From assembly GCA_964414795.1 (NCBI GenBank), contig CAYPWV010000005.1, forward strand, positions 4,336 through 68,335: DNA of 64,000 nucleotides, in the 5' to 3' direction. The DNA comes from an uncultured Gammaproteobacteria bacterium. GTDB lineage: Bacteria; Patescibacteriota; Patescibacteriia; UBA9934. The first letter of the stretch is position 1; each line of letters begins with the position of its first letter. Under the pieces are notes generated by a model, which saw only the letters and a list, made by a program, of their open reading frames with translations, was not told the origin of the DNA and ran no database searches. A program made the translations under genes and the position numbers. This document shows positions 10,113-18,957 of this stretch, one piece after another.

Positions 10113-13100
10113 TTAAGCGTAGACCGGTTCAAACTCCTTATAGACACGCACGGTCTCAAAGTAAATGAACTCGATAAGACGCTCAGTTTGTTTTTCTTGA
10201 AGAATGCCTCGTTGAATCAACATCAAACGAACATTCTGACGAATACGAGCTTTAATGGTTTCGTTATTTGTCCAATCGATTGCGAGGTCTCTTCGAATAC
10301 GTTTTGTGAGATCTTTTACGAATTCTTTAATATCAATCCCGGTATCTTTAAGGTCGGGATTCTTTTCTAGCGAATCGTAGAATGCGATTTCTTCAGGGGA
10401 CAGTCCAAGTGCCTGACTTTCTTCATCGAGCTTTTTGATTTCTCCAGCGATCTCAAGAAGACGTTTGATGATTTCCGCCGAGCTAATCACGTTGTTCTCG
10501 TATTTTTCAATGAGATCGGAAAGCAAAGTAAGCATCGTCTCATAGCGCGCCTTGTTCATTCGCATTCGAGTAACAATTTCCTTATCCAGTAATTTGCGAA
10601 CGGTATCAACGGCAAGGTTTTTGTACTCAGATTTGCGAATTTCTTCGGCAAACTTCTCATCGAAAATAGAGATACTCTTCGATTCGTTTGCAACAGCAAA
10701 TAAATCAATGACTTCTTCGGCCTGAACGGCATCATGAAGCAGCGAACGAATTGCACTTTCCGTTTCTTCAGGGAAAACTGCCTTTGGAATAACCGTTTGC
10801 TTCGCGATTCCTTCGCGAACCGCTTGAAAGAATTGCACATCACCAGCAATCTTCATGGCTGGTTCGCTTGGCATGACCAATGCATGTAACTTCGACAATT
10901 TTCCAACGGTACCGATGTACTGCATCTTTTGATCGTCGGAAAGAATTCCGTTCTTTGAAATTACCGCGTTAATACAAGACTGCAACAACCGAGACAATTC
11001 CGTACCCTTCAGTTTTTTCCAATCCGAATATGTGATGCTATCCAGAAACGCGATACTTTGTTTATGTAGCGCATTCATTTCTGAGATAATCTCATCAAGA
11101 GGAATCATCGCCTCTTTTTGAGTTCCGGAATCATATACTGCCAACGCTTTTTTGAGGTTGTCTGCGATACCGATGTAATCAACAATAAGTCCACCCGGTT
11201 TATCCTTAAACACCCGGTTGACACGGGCGATTGCCTGCATGAGTCCGTGGTTTTTAAGCGGCTTATCAAGATACATGGTGTGGAGGCACGGGACATCAAA
11301 ACCCGTTAGCCACATATCGCAAACAATCGCGATCTTGAGCGGATCGTTTATTTTCTTGAATCTTTTTTCCAGCTTCTTTACGTCACGCTCGGTTTGAATA
11401 TCTGACACATATTCATCGCTATCAGATATAACTACCGCGCATTCAGGGGCATTAGGTATCTTTTGAATCTCTTTGTACATTGCAACTGCGATTCTTCGAC
11501 TCATTGTCACGATCATCGCCTTTCCTTCAATAGGGCGATTCGTGAAGTGACGAACAACATCTTTTGCAACTTCCTCTATACGACTCTGCGCTCCAACAAT
11601 CTCTTCAAGTACTGCCCACTCTTTACGAGCTTTTGTTTTCTCATCAACGATAATTTCCCCAAGTAAGCTATCGAATTTTGAATCGATAAACTTATCCGCC
11701 ATGTGCAGTGGCACAAGACGCCCCTCGTAATAAATAGGAACCGTTGCACCGTCCCGTACCGCCTTACCAATGCGATACTCACTTACTATTGGCCCGAACA
11801 CCCTTACCGTGTCCTTATCGTCATTCGAGATAGGAGTTCCTGTAACGCCTAAAAAGCTCGCGTTTGGCAAAGCCTGTCGTACACTCCCAGCAAGACCACT
11901 ATATTGAGTACGGTGGGCTTCATCAGCAAGTACAATCACGTTCTCGCGATCCGTTAATACCGCATTCGCGTCTGGATCTTCCTTAAACTTTTGGATCGTA
12001 GTGAAAATAAGTTCGCTCTGTAAATGTCCGAGTCGATTCCTTAGGTCTGCGATACTCAACGCTCGTTTTGCAAGCGTTCCATATCCTGTCCGTTTAAACG
12101 TCTTAAAAAGCTGATCATCCAAATCTTCGCGATCGGTAAGAAAGACGTAGGCCGGGCCTTTCAATGCATCGATGCGATTGGTTTTGTTAACGTAGAAAAC
12201 CATGGAAAGTGATTTTCCGGATCCTTGCGTGTGCCAGAAAACACCGATCTTGTGATCCTGTTCGCCTCCCACGGCGCGTATCGTGCTTTCAACGGTCTCA
12301 TTGACTCCGTAATACTGATGATACAGACACATTTTCTTCGTGTAGGTAACTGCGTCTCCATCTCCATCTGCCTCGAAGACGATAAAGTTCCGAAGCACGT
12401 CCAAGAAACGATGCTTTTCGAATAAGCCAATTGCGAGTACTTCAAGTTGACTCGCATCTTTTGGCGCATCATCATCCGTCTTTACCCCTTTCCATGCCCC
12501 ATAACGCTCCCAGGAAGAGGAAATCGTTCCATGCTTCGCCGTATGAAGATCAGAAAGTCCGATAACTTGGTTATACAAGAAGAGCTTTGGAATCTCTTTT
12601 TTGTACAATTCGATATCTCGATACGCTTCGCCGATAGAAGCAGTATCACGCACTGCGCTTTTTAGCTCGAATACCGACAACGGCAATCCATTGATAAACA
12701 CCACTACATCAGGACGACGAAGAGAATCCGCTCCCTGTACAGTGAATTGATTTACAACGAGAAATTCATTTGCATCTGCATTCTCATAATCAATAAGTTT
12801 CACTAACTCGGCATTCTCGTTTCCATCAGTTCGCCAAGAATGCTTTTTTCCATCCGTAATCCAGGAAAACATTTCCTTATTACCAAGAACCAGATCCGCA
12901 TGATTATATTCCGCAATATCATCTGCAACTTCCTCGGCCTGCTCTGAAGGCAACTGCGGATTAAGGCGTCGAATAGCCCCAACCAACCGATCCTTCAATA
13001 CAACAGTTCGAAAATCGCCACGCTCAGCTTTTTGCTGACCGGGGTTAATGTCGGGGCCGTATACATATTCATAGCCCTGACCCTTGAGCCAATCTATAAG

Positions 13101-13163
13101 GGATTGCTCGGTTAAGTTTTGTTCGTTGAGAGAGTTCATAGATTGAATTCGGGATATCCACAT
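10113..13163 (-). CDS. hsdR: Type I restriction enzyme R subunit (1016 aa)
   Basis: N-terminal HsdR_N/nuclease region, SF2 helicase motifs (TQGSGKSLSMVF Walker A, VLADEAHRTQ DEAH box, GFDVPCL), and the typical C-terminal helical domain. Confidence 0.93.
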   Translation of the reverse strand: MWISRIQSMNSLNEQNLTEQSLIDWLKGQGYEYVYGPDINPGQQKAERGDFRTVVLKDRLVGAIRRLNPQLPSEQAEEVADDIAEYNHADLVLGNKEMFSWITDGKKHSWRTDGNENAELVKLIDYENADANEFLVVNQFTVQGADSLRRPDVVVFINGLPLSVFELKSAVRDTASIGEAYRDIELYKKEIPKLFLYNQVIGLSDLHTAKHGTISSSWERYGAWKGVKTDDDAPKDASQLEVLAIGLFEKHRFLDVLRNFIVFEADGDGDAVTYTKKMCLYHQYYGVNETVESTIRAVGGEQDHKIGVFWHTQGSGKSLSMVFYVNKTNRIDALKGPAYVFLTDREDLDDQLFKTFKRTGYGTLAKRALSIADLRNRLGHLQSELIFTTIQKFKEDPDANAVLTDRENVIVLADEAHRTQYSGLAGSVRQALPNASFLGVTGTPISNDDKDTVRVFGPIVSEYRIGKAVRDGATVPIYYEGRLVPLHMADKFIDSKFDSLLGEIIVDEKTKARKEWAVLEEIVGAQSRIEEVAKDVVRHFTNRPIEGKAMIVTMSRRIAVAMYKEIQKIPNAPECAVVISDSDEYVSDIQTERDVKKLEKRFKKINDPLKIAIVCDMWLTGFDVPCLHTMYLDKPLKNHGLMQAIARVNRVFKDKPGGLIVDYIGIADNLKKALAVYDSGTQKEAMIPLDEIISEMNALHKQSIAFLDSITYSDWKKLKGTELSRLLQSCINAVISKNGILSDDQKMQYIGTVGKLSKLHALVMPSEPAMKIAGDVQFFQAVREGIAKQTVIPKAVFPEETESAIRSLLHDAVQAEEVIDLFAVANESKSISIFDEKFAEEIRKSEYKNLAVDTVRKLLDKEIVTRMRMNKARYETMLTLLSDLIEKYENNVISSAEIIKRLLEIAGEIKKLDEESQALGLSPEEIAFYDSLEKNPDLKDTGIDIKEFVKDLTKRIRRDLAIDWTNNETIKARIRQNVRLMLIQRGILQEKQTERLIEFIYFETVRVYKEFEPVYA

Positions 13164-13261
13164 CTCCTTGATTTTTAGCCCTACTTAAGGTAGTTTTAAG
13201 GTAAAGGTTCCAACCCTCCGATACGAGCCCCTGGGCTCTTCCGAAAGGATAGGGGGGTTGG

Positions 13262-13987
13262 TCATTTTTTATCTACATATTTGTAAAATTCAGTTGTTCC
13301 TGATTTAAAAATTTCAAAGTGATTTTTAATGTGTGCCTTAATAATTTCGTAAGGCCGAATCTCATTCCTCTCATTTTTAATCGAAACTGCCCAACAGCAA
13401 TAATCAGCAAGTTGACAATTCAAATCAGAATTCGACGAGTGAGAAAAAATCTCAAATGGTACGGGGGGAAATGCTTCTTTCAAAAAATGTTTTAGTGTTT
13501 GCAGAACAATCTTTTTCTTGTCGCCAGTATAGAGAGAGCCCAGAACGACAACAATTTTATCAACTTTTTCGCGCTTTCCCTCAAATAAGTATTTCAACAA
13601 ACACTCACAACATTTCTTATAAAGACCGAATCCTGTTACTCGTTCAATTAATTTTTTTCGTTTATAATAGTTTTTTTTATATAAAGTTGGGTTGGCTTTA
13701 TTTTTTTGAGCTATCACTGAATGCACTTCAAAAGTTCCATTGAGTTGTTCGAACAAACGAAACACTCGATTTCTCACATCTTGTGAATCCTCGGTTGCGT
13801 GAAAAGATTCTTGATCCAAGCCTTGTACAAGTAATCGATAACGCAAGCGCAATAACTCTTCTCGCTTTATCACGGGATCAAAAGTGACAAAACCCGTAAG
13901 AACAAAAAACTTTGTCCCCTTTGGGGAGAAATCAAAATTTCCTGACTCATCCAAAAACACGAAAATTGTCTTTTGTGTGGACTCCAT
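13262..13987 (-). CDS. DUF3800 family protein (241 aa), embedded between hsdS and hsdR
   Basis: Its N-terminus, IFVFLDESGNFDF, is the [FY]xDESG signature I associate with DUF3800. A paralog lies at 16518-17171. The region is AT-rich relative to its neighbours. Confidence 0.7.
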   Translation of the reverse strand: MESTQKTIFVFLDESGNFDFSPKGTKFFVLTGFVTFDPVIKREELLRLRYRLLVQGLDQESFHATEDSQDVRNRVFRLFEQLNGTFEVHSVIAQKNKANPTLYKKNYYKRKKLIERVTGFGLYKKCCECLLKYLFEGKREKVDKIVVVLGSLYTGDKKKIVLQTLKHFLKEAFPPVPFEIFSHSSNSDLNCQLADYCCWAVSIKNERNEIRPYEIIKAHIKNHFEIFKSGTTEFYKYVDKK

Positions 13988-13991
13988 AGAA

Positions 13992-15143
13992 CTAAATCAA
14001 CTTTACTGATAACAAATCTCTTGATTGTTCCAAAAGCTCGACTTCTTTAATTAACCGTTTTATTTCTTCAAACAACGAAGCAACTCTTTTATGAAATAGG
14101 TTAATTATTGCACCGGTGGGTTCTAATACTTTGATATTTGAGAATATATTAGTATTCACATTCAACGTCGTTGATCCACCTGAACCGATAGCTTGTAAGT
14201 CACTCTTTTTACTTACTAAACTGAAGTACAGAAATTCCAGCAGACTCTTACCATTCGGGATGACGGTATTTATCTGTTGATTCGTCTGTGAGTCTTTCGT
14301 TGTAATTGAAACCAATCCAACGGTTGCAATACAACTCACACAAATCGATCCTTCTGGCACAAGTTTATTTTTTTGAGTACTGGCACCTGCTTCTGTGAGG
14401 CTGTCTTCAGTTTTAATGATAAATACCTGCCCATGCATGTCAGGAATTTTTATAAAAAATATATCACCACCAAAATAGCTTGGTTCAGACTTTGAAGGAG
14501 TTTTTCCACAAACTACATTTCCAAAATCACTGACTTTTCCAACTCGCCACCCCTCCGGAATCTCCCCCATCTCACTCTCAACCAATCCGACCTTCTCATG
14601 ACCAGGAAAGTTAAACTTCACAAACCACTCGTCAAAAATGGCTTGTGCAATTGCTTCAAGATTTTTGATAATGGAGTTGTTGTTTTGTATTTTTTCATCG
14701 TAAGAGCTCAAAATTGCCGCAATCTTTTTTTGATACTGGACATTGGGAATTTTTACTTGCATCCCGTGTATGTGATTACGGTTTAGGGTAGGAACTCCCG
14801 TCCCAGAATTGAATTTTTCAAAATCAAATGACGACAAAAAATAATAACAAAACTTTGGATCATTACCGTGAAAATCACTGACGTACAAGGTCGTGTTATG
14901 CGGCCAATAATCCTCCTCCACGTAAAAGATGCCCCCCAACGATCCACTTCGCCCTGTAAATACACCGGGTCCTCTAACCTTGAACTCATTGTGAAATTCT
15001 CTTCGACCATTCGAGAAGACAACCGGGTATTCACCTTTTTTAATCTCCGTCAGAGGCAGATCATAACCTCGATGAAAGGTGATCACTTCGCCAAGAGTTG
15101 TTTCTTTTCTCTCCTTTTTTATTTGTTCCAAAAATTTGTCCAT
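13992..15143 (-). CDS. hsdS: Type I restriction-modification specificity subunit
   Basis: Two target-recognition domains separated by and ending in conserved coiled-coil spacer regions (LEAIAQAIFDEWFVKF...; C-terminal LFEEIKRLIKEVELLEQSRDLL). It starts 5 nt after the stop of the upstream coiled-coil gene. Confidence 0.9.
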   Translation of the reverse strand: MDKFLEQIKKERKETTLGEVITFHRGYDLPLTEIKKGEYPVVFSNGRREFHNEFKVRGPGVFTGRSGSLGGIFYVEEDYWPHNTTLYVSDFHGNDPKFCYYFLSSFDFEKFNSGTGVPTLNRNHIHGMQVKIPNVQYQKKIAAILSSYDEKIQNNNSIIKNLEAIAQAIFDEWFVKFNFPGHEKVGLVESEMGEIPEGWRVGKVSDFGNVVCGKTPSKSEPSYFGGDIFFIKIPDMHGQVFIIKTEDSLTEAGASTQKNKLVPEGSICVSCIATVGLVSITTKDSQTNQQINTVIPNGKSLLEFLYFSLVSKKSDLQAIGSGGSTTLNVNTNIFSNIKVLEPTGAIINLFHKRVASLFEEIKRLIKEVELLEQSRDLLSVKLI

Positions 15144-15145
15144 AT

Positions 15146-16318
15146 TTATTCTTCTTCTGGCACCGGCAATTCCAACGCCTCAATCTTTTGCAACTGAACA
15201 ACTCCGCTAATATCCCCATAAATACCTATCGTATTTTTAATAACTTTTTGAATCTGTTTTTCTCGCTCCGTCCAAATCTTTTCATAAGCAAGACGCTCCT
15301 TTTGTAAAGAAATATTCATACCTTGAAACGCTTCGACAATCGCCTCAATGCGCTGACGGAATTCAACTCCTGAAAGATAGGAATACATAACTTCCATCTT
15401 TTCATTCTTGCCAACCGAACTGAACTTTTCACGAGCTACCGAAAGAAGTTCTTGCCGAAGAAGTGTGGCAACAGAAACGGCCAATTTTATATCGCAAACC
15501 CATACGCCATCTCGATCAGAGATTGCGTCTGCGCCCGTTGGAAGAACGGACGAGACGATAACCGCGAGATCCGCTTTTACCGTTCGTTGATCGTCCTTAA
15601 GTTTTTGAATCCAGCCTTCAGTCCAAACTTTTGTCTTTTTAGACTCCCAAATAATCTTTCCGCACTCAATACCATTCTTATTTTTAACAATCTGAATTAC
15701 ATCAGCTCCGTTAACTCCTTTGGGGACAAGGATGATATCGTCGTAAATAAATTCACTCTTGAGCGTTTCCTCAAGAATCATTTCTTGAACTTCGCCCTGC
15801 GTCTGCTGCGACCCTTGTTCTAACTTTCTAGCCAACTCATCTTTCGCTTTTGTGGCATCGGAGAGCTGCTTGTTTAACTGATCAATCTTAGCTTGCTGAG
15901 CCTCTGTGGCTCGCTTCGATGCGTCTTCTTCGATCTTCTTTCGCTCTTCATCCATCTGACGCTGTTTCTCTAGCTCAAAGCGGTCTTTCTCTTCTTTTAA
16001 CTGCACAGCCTGACGACGAAGTTCAAGCTCTTTTTCTCCTGACTCCTTAAGCTTTTGCTCCTTGTCCTTAAGTTGCTCCTCTAAAAACTTGCGCTCTGCT
16101 TCACCTTCTTTTGCTACGTCGGCTTTTACTTTTTTCGTAAGGTCAGCAGATAGTGCATCCAACTTCTTTGTATTCTCCCTTTCGAGGGATGCCTTAAGAA
16201 CAGCTTCTTTTTCTTCAAAGTCTTTCTTTAGTTTACTCTCAATCTGGTGCGTCAAAACATCATCGATAGAAATCGACTCATGACAGTTTGGACAGATAAT
16301 TTCGTTTGTTTTTGACAT
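15146..16318 (-). CDS. Zinc-ribbon / long coiled-coil / C-terminal PD-(D/E)xK-like protein (DUF2130-like, 390 aa)
   Basis: N-terminal CPNCHESISIDD zinc ribbon. About 170 aa of E/K-rich heptad coiled coil. C-terminal domain with a candidate nuclease motif (GADVIQIV...GKIIWESKKTK reads as D...ExK). It sits between a DUF3800 gene and hsdS. Confidence 0.6.
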   Translation of the reverse strand: MSKTNEIICPNCHESISIDDVLTHQIESKLKKDFEEKEAVLKASLERENTKKLDALSADLTKKVKADVAKEGEAERKFLEEQLKDKEQKLKESGEKELELRRQAVQLKEEKDRFELEKQRQMDEERKKIEEDASKRATEAQQAKIDQLNKQLSDATKAKDELARKLEQGSQQTQGEVQEMILEETLKSEFIYDDIILVPKGVNGADVIQIVKNKNGIECGKIIWESKKTKVWTEGWIQKLKDDQRTVKADLAVIVSSVLPTGADAISDRDGVWVCDIKLAVSVATLLRQELLSVAREKFSSVGKNEKMEVMYSYLSGVEFRQRIEAIVEAFQGMNISLQKERLAYEKIWTEREKQIQKVIKNTIGIYGDISGVVQLQKIEALELPVPEEE

Positions 16319-16517
16319 ATGGGGATAGATTGACTTTTTGTTCAGATTCTGGTATATTCTTTAGTAGAGGCATGCAATAATATCTTATCTGATGCTTCGG
16401 CGTTCCCTCGGAGTTTCTGGGGTTTCTCTCGGCAACGAGAGATGTAGCTGAAGATATTCATCACATAAGACGCTGCTTCTACCAAAGAAAGTCTGTATCA
16501 CAGGCTTTTTTTGTTTG

Positions 16518-17171
16518 TCATGTGAAAAACTCCTTCCCTTGGTCAAGAAAATTATTCTTGAGAATTTTGTAGCATTCTTCACCAAGTGGGGATTTTTCCA
16601 GATAACGATTCAAGGCTCCGGAGATCCAGTCTACAATCTGCATGTTTGCATTCGATGTAGAATCAACCATTTCCACTTGTACCACGGTTCCTGGAGGACA
16701 AAGCGTAAGAATTCGTGCTCGAATTGATTGTTCAAATTCTTTTTTCGTAACGCCATTTAAAGAGCGCTGGTCGCAAAATACATGAATCTCTTTTTCGTCA
16801 TTAGGAAAATATTGTTCGATAATTTGGGTAATAATATTGGTATAAAGTTTACCGCTCTCAATTTTTCCTTTTTTCCGAAAATTACTCGGGATATTATTTC
16901 GCAGTAAATAACCAAACCGAATACGCACGTCTAATTTTGCAATATATTTCAATGTCTTTATACGAAGATCGTCGGTGATGCCAGATTGCGACCATTTGAT
17001 CTCAGCTTGCGATCGCATCTTTCTCGGAAACCGATCACGCCACGCTCGGAAAGCTTTTGCAGTTCGACGCTGATCACCAACCGTAAAAGATCCAATCACG
17101 AAATACTCCTCATGGTTATGCTTTGTAAAATTGCCACTCTCATCCAAAAAGAGAAACATATTAGAATCCAA
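16518..17171 (-). CDS. DUF3800 family protein, second paralog (217 aa), embedded immediately downstream of hsdM
   Basis: N-terminus MFLFLDESGNFTKH carries the same DESG signature. It overlaps the hsdM stop by 11 nt. Confidence 0.7.
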   Translation of the reverse strand: MDSNMFLFLDESGNFTKHNHEEYFVIGSFTVGDQRRTAKAFRAWRDRFPRKMRSQAEIKWSQSGITDDLRIKTLKYIAKLDVRIRFGYLLRNNIPSNFRKKGKIESGKLYTNIITQIIEQYFPNDEKEIHVFCDQRSLNGVTKKEFEQSIRARILTLCPPGTVVQVEMVDSTSNANMQIVDWISGALNRYLEKSPLGEECYKILKNNFLDQGKEFFT

Positions 17172-18957
17172 GCTCTTTCAAGTTGCCCTCAATAACATTC
17201 TCTAGTTCGTGTCCGCGTTTAAAGGAAATATGCAGTTCATCGGAAAGCTTTTTCATCTTTTCCTCGAACGAGATGCCGTCATCTTCCACCTCGGAGAGTC
17301 CGACATATCGTCCTGGAGTGAGGACGTAACCGTTCTTTTGAATCTCATCTAACGTTGCCGATCGGCAATAACCAAGGATGTCCTCGTATGCACCGGCTCC
17401 ATCCTCTCCGCGCCACGCACGAACCGTCCCTGCAATCTTTTGTATATGCTCTGCGTTGAATACAACTTGCTTACGTGAAATCTGCTCGAACAATTCTCGG
17501 GCATCAATAAAAAGCGTTTCTCCTTTGCGAGAGCGGAAGCGGTCACCACCTTTATTTTTTGATAAGAACCAAAGCGATACAGGAAGCCCAACGTTGTAGA
17601 AAAGTTTAGAGGGACAGGAAATAATCACGTCAACAAAATCCGTTTCGATAAGTTTTTGTCGAAGCTCACCTTCTTTTCCAGATACTGCCAACGCACCGTT
17701 TGGCATGACAAATCCAGCGTTTCCGTTGGGCGCGAGATGATGCACAAAATGCTGTATCCACATGAAGTTGGCATTTCCCGAAGGGGGAAGGCCAAGAATG
17801 ATCCGGGGATCGTTGTCCGAAAGTTTCGAGGGTTCCCATTCACCATTGAAGGGAGGATTCGTGATAACGAAATCCGCCTGCAAATGCGGGAACATGTCGT
17901 TATAGTAAGTGTTGCCGAGTTCGATCTTTCCGGAAAGGCCTCGGATCGCAAGGTTCATCTTGGCAAGGCGAAGCGTTGTCTGGTTGCTTTCCTGACCATT
18001 AAATGAAAGTTTTGGCGCATCCTTCCCATGTTCGCGAAGATATTCAGCTATGGATACGAACATGCCACCGCTTCCACAGGCAGGATCAAAAACGCGAGCA
18101 TTCTCTCGCGGCTCAAGAACTTCTACTAAAAGTTTTACGATCGAACGCGGAGTGAAAAATTCTCCGCCACGTTTGCCCTCCGCTGAGGCAAACTGCCCAA
18201 GGAAGTACTCGTAAATGCGCCCAAGGATATCTTTTTCTCGATCAAAATCATGATTGAATGAAATGCGGGAAAAGATGTTAACCAATTCACCCAATACCGA
18301 ATGATCAAGATTTGTTTTTGTATATACGCGTGGAAGTACATTTTCAAGTTGATCAGGATTATCCTTCTCGATAAGCATCATTGCATCATCTAAAACCTTT
18401 CCCAAATCCGCGCTCATTGTCTTCGTTTGGAGATACTCCCAACGCGACCGTTCTGGAACGTAGAAAACACCTTCCGCGGTATAAAAATCTTTAGTCTCAA
18501 GAATTTGCTTACGAGCCTCCTCGTTCGAAACATAGAAATCCTCGTTCTTTGGATCGCGAGTCATTTCCGCGAGTACCTCACGACGTTTGTAGAAAGAATC
18601 CGAAATGTATTTTAAAAAGAGAAGCCCGAGAACGATGTTCTTATATTCGGAGACATCGATATTTCCACGGAGCTTATCAGCGGCTGCCCACAGTTCTTTT
18701 TCGAAGCCAAGATCATGGTGCTGACTCTTTTTTCCGACCACGCTTGCCGTCGCCTTCTTCTGCTCTTCCGTGATTCGTCCTTGAAGCTCCTCGGAAAGAG
18801 AGGCCTTGGGGATAACAAAGGTCGGTTTCGACGAATCGCCGATATTTTCAGCAATAATGTCACCTTTCTTAATTTTCTGGTGAACAGCCACACGAGAAAT
18901 CCCCAGCATCTTGGCTAGCTGGGTTGGAGTAATGAATTGGGATTTATCGATGGACAT
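17161..18957 (-). CDS. hsdM: Type I restriction-modification DNA methyltransferase (N6-adenine) with an extra N-terminal HTH domain
   Basis: HsdM_N region (ELWAAADKLRGNIDVSEYKNIVLGLLFLKYISD), the SAM motif (FDPACGSGGMF) and the catalytic VITNPPFN motif. The first ~80 aa are an additional HTH (ITPTQLAKMLGISRVAVHQKIKKGDI). Confidence 0.93.
   Translation of the reverse strand: MSIDKSQFITPTQLAKMLGISRVAVHQKIKKGDIIAENIGDSSKPTFVIPKASLSEELQGRITEEQKKATASVVGKKSQHHDLGFEKELWAAADKLRGNIDVSEYKNIVLGLLFLKYISDSFYKRREVLAEMTRDPKNEDFYVSNEEARKQILETKDFYTAEGVFYVPERSRWEYLQTKTMSADLGKVLDDAMMLIEKDNPDQLENVLPRVYTKTNLDHSVLGELVNIFSRISFNHDFDREKDILGRIYEYFLGQFASAEGKRGGEFFTPRSIVKLLVEVLEPRENARVFDPACGSGGMFVSIAEYLREHGKDAPKLSFNGQESNQTTLRLAKMNLAIRGLSGKIELGNTYYNDMFPHLQADFVITNPPFNGEWEPSKLSDNDPRIILGLPPSGNANFMWIQHFVHHLAPNGNAGFVMPNGALAVSGKEGELRQKLIETDFVDVIISCPSKLFYNVGLPVSLWFLSKNKGGDRFRSRKGETLFIDARELFEQISRKQVVFNAEHIQKIAGTVRAWRGEDGAGAYEDILGYCRSATLDEIQKNGYVLTPGRYVGLSEVEDDGISFEEKMKKLSDELHISFKRGHELENVIEGNLKELGF

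Follow-up and report, generated by a model that had tools for sequence, protein, structure and literature searches.

Type I restriction-modification (R-M) operons may carry accessory nucleases such as PrrC (PMC12707154, PMC2610378), and DUF3800 proteins have been described in several further settings: as an accessory domain of retron type VII (PMC7736814), in connection with CRISPR systems (PMC10910872, PMC13594972, bioRxiv 10.64898/2026.08.25.746378) and, in the main text of PMC5737381, beside 11 classes of RNA motifs named DUF3800-I to DUF3800-XI. The RNase H-like fold of DUF3800 is already known along with its retron and CRISPR links (PMC7736814, PMC10910872, PMC13594972, bioRxiv 10.64898/2026.08.25.746378). 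The purpose of the structured RNA classes adjacent to DUF3800 has been an open question since 2017 (PMC5737381), and in our search for later studies on the function of drum, skipping-rope and DUF3800 RNAs nothing relevant turned up. Here, we analyzed a stretch of 64,000 nucleotides (the window) of contig CAYPWV010000005.1, in which a type I R-M operon on the minus strand (10113-18957) holds two different DUF3800 genes, each convergent with a small structured RNA gene, and one DUF2130 gene. We read this locus as an R-M operon that has gathered self-contained RNA-controlled nuclease modules, an interpretation that in our judgement stands evenly balanced between being right and wrong.

Read 5' to 3' on the minus strand, the list of open reading frames (ORFs) and the Pfam matches gave hsdM, DUF3800-a, DUF2130, hsdS, DUF3800-b and hsdR. 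These are the same six minus-strand ORFs, in the same order and at the same coordinates, that a first-pass annotation had listed, and all six family assignments were confirmed with strong scores in Pfam, PADLOC and NCBIfam. The annotation had described the central genes as tightly packed, which is right for three junctions but overlooks two non-coding gaps of 199 nt (16319-16517) and 98 nt (13164-13261), each of which holds one plus-strand structured RNA gene. We named the two cargo genes DUF3800-a (16518-17159) and DUF3800-b (13262-13987), their RNAs RNA-V and RNA-b, and gave L-numbers (L001, L024 and so on) to the related loci compared. We are highly confident of the anatomy of these DUF3800+RNA units, namely a subfamily-specific RNA class in every assessable locus, a promoter for the RNA, a convergent arrangement with a shared 3' end, and an RNA structure under selection.

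DUF3800-a encodes 213 amino acids (aa) from an ATG at 17159 (PF12686, 3.4e-15, 57.5 bits, Pfam cut-off 21 bits) and ends with a stop codon at 16518-16520. From a TTG the ORF would cover 16518-17171, and the overlap of hsdM and DUF3800-a (17161/17171) reported in the annotation was a product of that start; gene callers take the ATG, one base past the hsdM stop. RNA-V (16366-16480, plus strand, 115 nt) lies 37 nt downstream of the DUF3800-a stop, on the opposite strand and convergent with the gene, and matches Rfam DUF3800-V (RF02964) over model positions 1-96 of 96 with 55.4 bits against a gathering score of 37.4. The top-scoring sigma-70-like site of the whole region (TTGACT-17-TATATT with a TG, 16330-16358, plus strand, 10/12 matches) ends 7 nt before the RNA start, and a hairpin between an A-run and a T-run (16483-16513, 14-pair stem followed by T7 in the terminator scan) lies downstream of the RNA. 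Therefore, from its own promoter and terminator, we predict that RNA-V is an independently transcribed gene.

Orthologs of DUF3800-a are 60-73% identical across many lineages of the candidate phyla radiation (CPR) and were found in seven distinct contexts: in this operon, after dnaJ, after a PIF1 helicase gene by a ribosomal-protein operon, after RhuM/Fic, between the genes of phosphoglucomutase and TyrRS, in a glycosyltransferase cluster, and on one viral contig. In 7/7 contexts the opposite strand carries a DUF3800-V RNA 33-53 nt downstream of the gene, and compensatory changes are present in 21 of the 42 predicted RNA-V pairs (7 sequences). The hairpin with its A-run and T-run stands between the DUF3800-a stop and the 3' end of RNA-V in all seven (the window, L003, L009, L011, L200, L202 and L192), and the copy at 16483-16513 is probably a shared two-way terminator, which would serve RNA-V and probably also the hsdM/DUF3800-a transcript. 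Six of the seven units trail a same-orientation host gene, either 4-90 nt behind it or overlapping its end, while the seventh (L192) begins at a contig end with its upstream side outside the data. Beyond the ATG at one end and the -35 of the RNA promoter at the other, the units of different loci are no longer similar.

The boundaries of the unit can also be seen by comparison with L024, which is the same operon without DUF3800-a and whose DUF3800-b ortholog is 80% identical. The junction in L024 reads hsdM stop, t, DUF2130 ATG, and that in the window reads hsdM stop, t, DUF3800-a ATG; hence the unit of ~860 bp (DUF3800-a, terminator, RNA-V and promoter) sits exactly at the translationally coupled hsdM|DUF2130 junction. 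Such a precise insertion, which leaves both genes undamaged, the habit of the units of standing behind a same-orientation host gene, and the position of the RNA at one end of the unit would all suit a small mobile element, in which an RNA-programmed RNase H-fold protein would insert at gene 3' ends by analogy with ωRNA and bridge-RNA systems. We regard this as very improbable, since structural comparison gave RNase HII and HIII, not transposases, as the top matches, the seven contexts showed neither terminal repeats nor target duplications around the DUF3800-a unit, no variable guide segment was seen (the variable RNA parts are base-paired and covarying), and no identical multicopy elements occurred among the loci examined. 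A long shot, too, is the wider idea that DUF3800 proteins and their cognate RNAs form a widespread class of RNA-programmed RNase H2-fold nucleases, in which the RNA would set the target or the 3'-end insertion site. If it were true, each unit would be an autonomous element of RNA-guided defence or mobility, and two of them would have landed in this R-M operon.

The hairpin at 16483-16513 would, as a side effect, part hsdM/DUF3800-a from the transcription of DUF2130-hsdS-hsdR, and no clear minus-strand promoter for DUF2130-hsdS-hsdR was found in the window. The terminator of the inserted unit may uncouple the transcription of these three genes from that of hsdM.

The second unit consists of DUF3800-b (13262-13987, minus strand, 241 aa; PF12686 1.2e-14, 55.7 bits; PADLOC DUF3800_VII 1.4e-9), which is invariant in 20 sequences at D13, E14, E60, E66, D67, Q192 and D195 (Q192-L-A-D195), and RNA-b (13203-13270, plus strand, ~68 nt, three helices), whose 3' end overlaps the DUF3800-b stop codon (13262-13264). 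Against Rfam DUF3800-IX (RF02968), RNA-b scored 25.3 bits at 13209-13266 on the plus strand and the RNA-b of L028/L031 scored 32 bits; the gathering score of 36.8 was not reached, and we therefore file RNA-b as a divergent relative of DUF3800-IX and not as a member. Scanning the DUF3800-b alignment over metagenomes gave 80 loci with 42-65% identity, and in almost all of them the same element of ~68 nt stands directly past the DUF3800-b stop, on the opposite strand. From its 5' end RNA-b consists of AAAGGUUCC, a 10-bp helix P1, GAYAA, a hairpin P2 (GAGCCC..GGGCUC), UU, a hairpin P3 with a GNRA-type loop, AUAG, the 3' strand of P1, GGUCA and a U-run, and the UCA is the reverse complement of the TGA stop of DUF3800-b. 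This is the architecture of DUF3800-IX, with a long closing helix, a GA-rich junction, two hairpins, a UAG junction and a U-tail.

Covariation in RNA-b was assessed in alignment A5 (65 distinct sequences, 20 pairs). Here 93.7% of the cells are paired, 10 pairs show double changes, and 6 of the 10 P1 pairs covary; the number of double-change cells is 141 against 45.4 ± 5.0 in shuffled alignments (0/500 shuffles reach 141), and sliding the partner strand gave at most 36. Our own covariance model of the element, R1, found RNA-b in 78 of the 80 DUF3800-b loci, including ten loci outside its training set, and in the other two the contig runs out. R1 had no match in control loci totalling 1.29 Mb. 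On the window, R1 scored 88.2 bits on the plus strand and 15.9 on the minus strand, a difference that is not an independent test of the strand because R1 was trained on the plus strand. The strand is indicated by other features: many U-G pairs would be mismatches if read from the other strand, the plus orientation puts the U-tail at the 3' end, and 36 of 65 orthologous loci, as opposed to 3.5% of shuffles, have a promoter-like site with at least 9/12 matches that ends ~6 nt before AAAGG. The promoter-like site of RNA-b in the window overlaps the ribosome-binding region of hsdR on the opposite strand.

DUF3800+RNA units are autonomous and are scattered over many chromosomal locations unrelated to one another. 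Immediately beside DUF3800-b, an R-M gene stands upstream in about 4 of 42 cases and downstream in 6 of 29, and the remaining neighbours are housekeeping genes, recombinases, one reverse transcriptase (RT), another DUF3800, or genes of no family; among the 42 upstream neighbours, no Pfam family matched more than two. The neighbouring DUF3800 gene was observed in L112, where it (99-776) lies upstream of the DUF3800-b ortholog (907-1605), so a closely placed DUF3800 pair is not unique to the window. We also observed, directly upstream of DUF3800-b orthologs in one sub-clade, a conserved protein of ~119 aa with copies 29-73% identical (L139 4651-5007, L141 4633-4992, L143 4636-4992, L144 562-918, L150 96-452, L151 200-556 and L156 3277-3639), which is absent from the window and might serve some DUF3800+RNA units as a third component.

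When the two DUF3800 proteins were aligned by BLASTP, only the N-terminal FLDESGNF motif was matched, whereas profile comparison (hhalign) gave 22% identity over the full length with a probability of 85.6%. The two were earlier described as paralogs; they are indeed full-length homologs, but not close ones. In its model, DUF3800-a adopts a type 2 RNase H fold whose acidic residues are conserved, its top structural matches are RNase HII and HIII, and D6, E7 and Q174-I-A/V-D177 (the DE and QxxD motifs) are invariant in 35 sequences. A profile search of PDB sequences returned no solved-structure relatives of DUF3800-a, DUF3800-b or DUF2130. Profile searches place the three embedded proteins in PF12686 and PF09903 (the latter at 8.4e-60), and the claim that this is undescribed territory does not hold for DUF3800, for which retron type VII, CRISPR, a PADLOC candidate model and 11 RNA classes are on record.

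How the units would act as RNA-protein modules we propose only tentatively. The structured RNA would bind the RNase H2-like DUF3800 nuclease and would either restrain the enzyme, like an RNA antitoxin or the multicopy single-stranded DNA (msDNA) of retrons, or else serve as its cofactor, and infection or loss of the RNA would then free the nuclease activity. Such modules would act without the R-M enzyme, as separate layers of defence or addiction, and they would be located here since R-M operons accumulate cargo of this kind. A purely antisense role of the RNAs is less likely in view of the short overlap with the mRNA, the covarying structure and the missing conserved trans target; trans-antisense action on the DUF3800-b start region, which we considered for RNA-b, is not supported, as no consistent interaction site emerged (59 loci).

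Several points weigh against modules of this sort. We infer RNA binding by DUF3800 solely from co-occurrence, and the promoter match of RNA-b in the window itself is weak (TTGATT-17-TAGTTT, 13168-13196, plus strand, 7/12 matches). RNAduplex runs of RNA-b with its own DUF3800-b mRNA in the 59 loci mentioned gave no consistent trans-antisense target, neither RNA-V nor RNA-b is repeated upstream of its gene as in type III toxin-antitoxin (TA) systems, and the C-terminal fold of DUF2130 could not be modelled, with a predicted local distance difference test (pLDDT) below 50. Both DUF3800 subfamilies are rare on viral contigs, and the high conservation of DUF3800-a (60-73%) with its mostly housekeeping flanks would equally fit a housekeeping ribonucleoprotein. 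We accordingly weighed the possibility that DUF3800+RNA pairs are CPR housekeeping ribonucleoproteins, active in RNA processing or the removal of RNA/DNA hybrids, that came to lie in the R-M operon by chance. The type 2 RNase H fold would suit such a role, as would neighbours that are mostly dnaJ, rpoD, ligA, tyrS, pgm and the like, in addition to the conservation and the rarity on viral contigs just given. We nevertheless think it unlikely, because one subfamily occurs in seven contexts with no synteny, its presence differs among close relatives (L024 and the window), two divergent subfamilies share one genome and DUF3800 genes stand in tandem elsewhere, PADLOC candidate models match, and retrons and CRISPR are associated with further lineages of DUF3800 (PMC7736814, PMC10910872).

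Like RNA-antitoxin systems, the units of the window pair a small RNA gene obligately with a nuclease gene. In type III TA systems (ToxIN), a tandem-repeat RNA antitoxin lies upstream of an endoribonuclease toxin (a ToxN-type RNase), and in Bacillus type I TA systems of the txpA/RatA type, convergent transcripts overlap at their 3' ends and the toxin is a small membrane peptide. The convergent shared 3' end of our units resembles the txpA/RatA type. Unlike in ToxIN, each RNA is a single structured unit, downstream of and convergent with the gene, with no tandem repeats upstream; a ToxIN-like type III system was rejected on this ground, the RNAs being single-copy and downstream of the gene. The protein of ~215-240 aa with an RNase H fold is also unlike type I and type III TA toxins, and, unlike antisense antitoxins, the RNAs show covariation, which indicates selection on RNA structure and not only on antisense complementarity. 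Retron type VII (PMC7736814) likewise combines a DUF3800 protein with a structured non-coding RNA; DUF3800-b matches PADLOC DUF3800_VII, and the DE and the Q of the QxxD motif described for retron type VII (PMC7736814) are kept in both DUF3800 proteins of the window. Where that system has an msr/msd upstream of an RT, the units here have an RNA downstream of the gene and convergent with it. Retron type VII was rejected as an assignment, because none of the large ORFs in 7.7-20.7 kb, each of which has been accounted for, is an RT; thus, no msDNA can be made by this locus.

A close likeness is also that to the DUF3800 RNA motifs presented in the main text of PMC5737381, where a structured small RNA likewise stands beside a DUF3800 gene, in either orientation and often with its own terminator. 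For the two classes found here, the pairing in 78/80 loci and 7/7 contexts, the fixed convergent geometry and the location in an R-M operon go beyond that main text. Judged by the literature we searched, in which 4 papers name DUF2130 and 21 name DUF3800, four features appear to be new: the CPR operon layout with DUF2130 after hsdM and a cargo slot, a CPR variant of the DUF3800-IX RNA that is missed at the Rfam threshold, the strict convergent geometry of gene and RNA, and the presence of two different DUF3800+RNA units in one R-M operon. The locus also sharpens the question of what these RNAs do, by tying a subfamily-specific RNA with a shared 3' end to a type 2 RNase H fold in a portable unit of ~0.9 kb, and such a two-gene unit is easy to synthesise.

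The DUF2130 gene (15146-16318, minus strand; PF09903 8.4e-60, 202.6 bits, Pfam cut-off 26.7 bits) encodes a CPxC pair, a helix of ~145 aa and a PD-(D/E)xK-like domain, and DUF2130 has been placed in the PD-(D/E)XK superfamily by Pfam and by Steczkiewicz et al. (PMC3424549). Across 15 sequences C9, C12, D206, E225 and K227 are invariant together with the stretch QGSQQTQGEVQE, and D206...E225-x-K227 are, going by sequence, the putative catalytic residues. The AlphaFold2 model of DUF2130, built from a shallow alignment, has a long helix (18-162) and a pLDDT of 59.9 overall, falling below 50 in the C-terminal half, and the order of its secondary-structure elements is compatible with the αβββαβ restriction-endonuclease-like fold, although a model of this pLDDT is unreliable. 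The zinc ribbon that had been suggested for this protein is doubtful, as a single CPxC pair is invariant. In residues 9-162, we observed the CPxC directly before the ~145-residue helix, which is closer to a Rad50/RloC-style zinc hook than to a zinc ribbon; that CPxC and helix form a zinc hook for dimerisation is speculation on our part.

To survey the neighbourhoods of DUF2130, we scanned the adjoining ORFs with Pfam in 80 species-level genomes whose copies are 44-83% identical, as tblastn with the Hsd proteins of the window was too insensitive. Among 59 upstream neighbours there were 9 N6_Mtase and 4 Eco57I-type methylases, that is, 13/59 R-M methyltransferases (MTases), besides RhuM, GmrSD, an MTES_1575 restriction endonuclease and SF1 helicases; the 65 downstream neighbours included AAA_15/AAA_21 (12), Methylase_S (6), AAA_13 (5), OLD-like TOPRIM (4) and PDDEXK_1 (3). 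In cultivated bacteria, plasmid copies of DUF2130 are surrounded by SIR2, AbiEi, Fic and caspase-family genes. Therefore, from the neighbours in these genomes and plasmids, we consider DUF2130 a gene of defence-island contexts, about a fifth of whose copies stand directly behind an R-M methylase. DUF2130 emerges as a candidate nuclease tied to R-M and defence-island contexts, and we infer that it is a coiled-coil PD-(D/E)xK nuclease working alongside R-M methyltransferases. In L017 (422-9789; also in L018-L020), DUF2130 comes after an SNF2/PLD-type protein and an Eco57I/MmeI-type methylase and before a DUF2779 protein, another R-M-like context for this gene, where the SNF2/PLD family matches of the L017-L020 set rest on the L019 copy only.

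With these neighbours in hand, the model of the first-pass annotation can be judged, according to which the embedded genes are a back-up similar to PrrC, silenced by the R-M complex and freed by a phage anti-restriction protein. It draws support from the position of the genes inside a type I operon, as that of prrC within ecoprrI (PMC12707154, PMC2610378), from the translational coupling of DUF2130 to the MTase gene in several R-M families, and from the MTases immediately upstream of DUF2130 in 13/59 cases. Most DUF3800+RNA loci, however, have no adjacent R-M gene, in related operons DUF3800-a is missing or the place of DUF3800-b is taken by other cargo, roughly three in four DUF2130 genes lack a neighbouring MTase, and no ATPase or anticodon-nuclease family of PrrC or RloC type is among the Pfam, PADLOC and NCBIfam matches. 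We consider such a back-up improbable; for the DUF3800 genes in particular it is not supported, as each has its own RNA partner and mostly stands away from R-M genes, which argues against wiring to this R-M enzyme. Only for DUF2130 may a trigger by R-M inhibition still apply. The locus is like PrrC/RloC systems (PMC12707154, PMC2610378, PMC3458546) in having an accessory nuclease gene in a type I R-M operon, and DUF2130 is like RloC in its CxxC beside a long coiled coil. Unlike PrrC/RloC, the embedded proteins have no ABC ATPase or anticodon-nuclease domain, DUF2130 being PD-(D/E)xK-like and DUF3800 RNase H2-like, and the DUF3800 units are mostly unlinked to R-M genes. Membership in PrrC/RloC was rejected on domain content, which lacks the ATPase and any PrrC- or RloC-named family in Pfam, PADLOC and NCBIfam.

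Comparison of related operons supports our interpretation that the R-M operon took up separate modules. The layout of the CPR operon is hsdM, DUF2130, hsdS, a cargo slot and hsdR. DUF2130, with orthologs 65-97% identical in related operons, directly follows hsdM in L014, L021, L024 and L032 (and directly follows an Eco57I/MmeI-type methylase in L017-20), and therefore does not count as swappable cargo in operons of this kind. The slot between hsdS and hsdR holds an AAA_15/AAA_21 ATPase in L014-16, a 481-aa ORF in L032 that was assigned by equal length, a ThsB_TIR and ThsA_Macro pair (Thoeris-like parts; L021 9364-10751) in L021-23, and DUF3800-b in L024-25 and the window. The swappable cassette proposed earlier is therefore partly right, in that the contents of the slot vary and DUF3800-a is absent from L024, but DUF2130 is kept behind hsdM. 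Nor do the three embedded genes form one module, since DUF2130 is part of the operon frame and the DUF3800 genes belong to two separate RNA-paired units. The slot might be mined for further defence genes.

The view that this is a type I R-M locus hosting embedded non-R-M genes was borne out, as HsdM, HsdS and HsdR carry the expected domains and three further genes of other families lie between them. HsdM (17161-18957, minus strand) carries HsdM_N (4.5e-25) and an N6-adenine MTase domain (N6_Mtase 1e-101; PADLOC MTase_I 6.5e-154), as expected for type I, and HsdS (13992-15143, minus strand) has the two target-recognition stretches of a type I specificity subunit (Methylase_S 1.5e-39; PADLOC Specificity_I 7e-118). 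HsdR (10113-13163, minus strand) comprises an HSDR_N nuclease (3.3e-42), a SWI2_SNF2 motor (2.8e-71), a T1R_D3-like part and T1RH-like_C (2.2e-68), and matches TIGR00348 at 1.3e-177 with 592 bits against a cut-off of 284; an alternative start at ATG 13139 gives 1008 aa, as in the 1008-aa gene call in L001. From the protein families, we predict with high confidence a standard type I R-M function. The N-terminus of HsdM has an extension of ~80 aa (about 18718-18957), which had been annotated as a fused helix-turn-helix (HTH). The extension exists, but its HTH_17 match is below threshold (E 7.9e-4, 20.1 bits against the Pfam cut-off of 27) and weak in orthologs too; it could be an autoregulatory DNA-binding domain.

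The AT-rich core noted previously was confirmed gene by gene, with a GC content of 0.347 in DUF3800-b, 0.384 in hsdS, 0.388 in DUF3800-a and 0.421 in DUF2130, compared with 0.460 in hsdM, 0.440 in hsdR and 0.454 in the whole window. By Pfam, housekeeping genes flank the island, FtsK at one end and, at the other, EF-P and an EpmA-like class II synthetase paralog. The operon is chromosomal and belongs to an uncultivated Patescibacteria (CPR) bacterium: a protein named 'Patescibacteria group bacterium' falls in the 90%-identity cluster of its EF-P, and CPR names are borne by nearly all homologs of the embedded genes. The closest relative of the operon in the genome collection is L032 (CAZVGV010000011.1), which is labelled 'uncultured Gammaproteobacteria' and is identical to the window at 87% in HsdM, 83% in DUF2130 and 83% in HsdR; the label set against this similarity points to a mis-binned metagenome-assembled genome or to a recent horizontal transfer of the operon. 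Finally, an S-adenosylmethionine (SAM) riboswitch was observed at L021 4510-4606, upstream of the S-adenosylmethionine synthetase gene that adjoins the related operon there, which is an ordinary feature.

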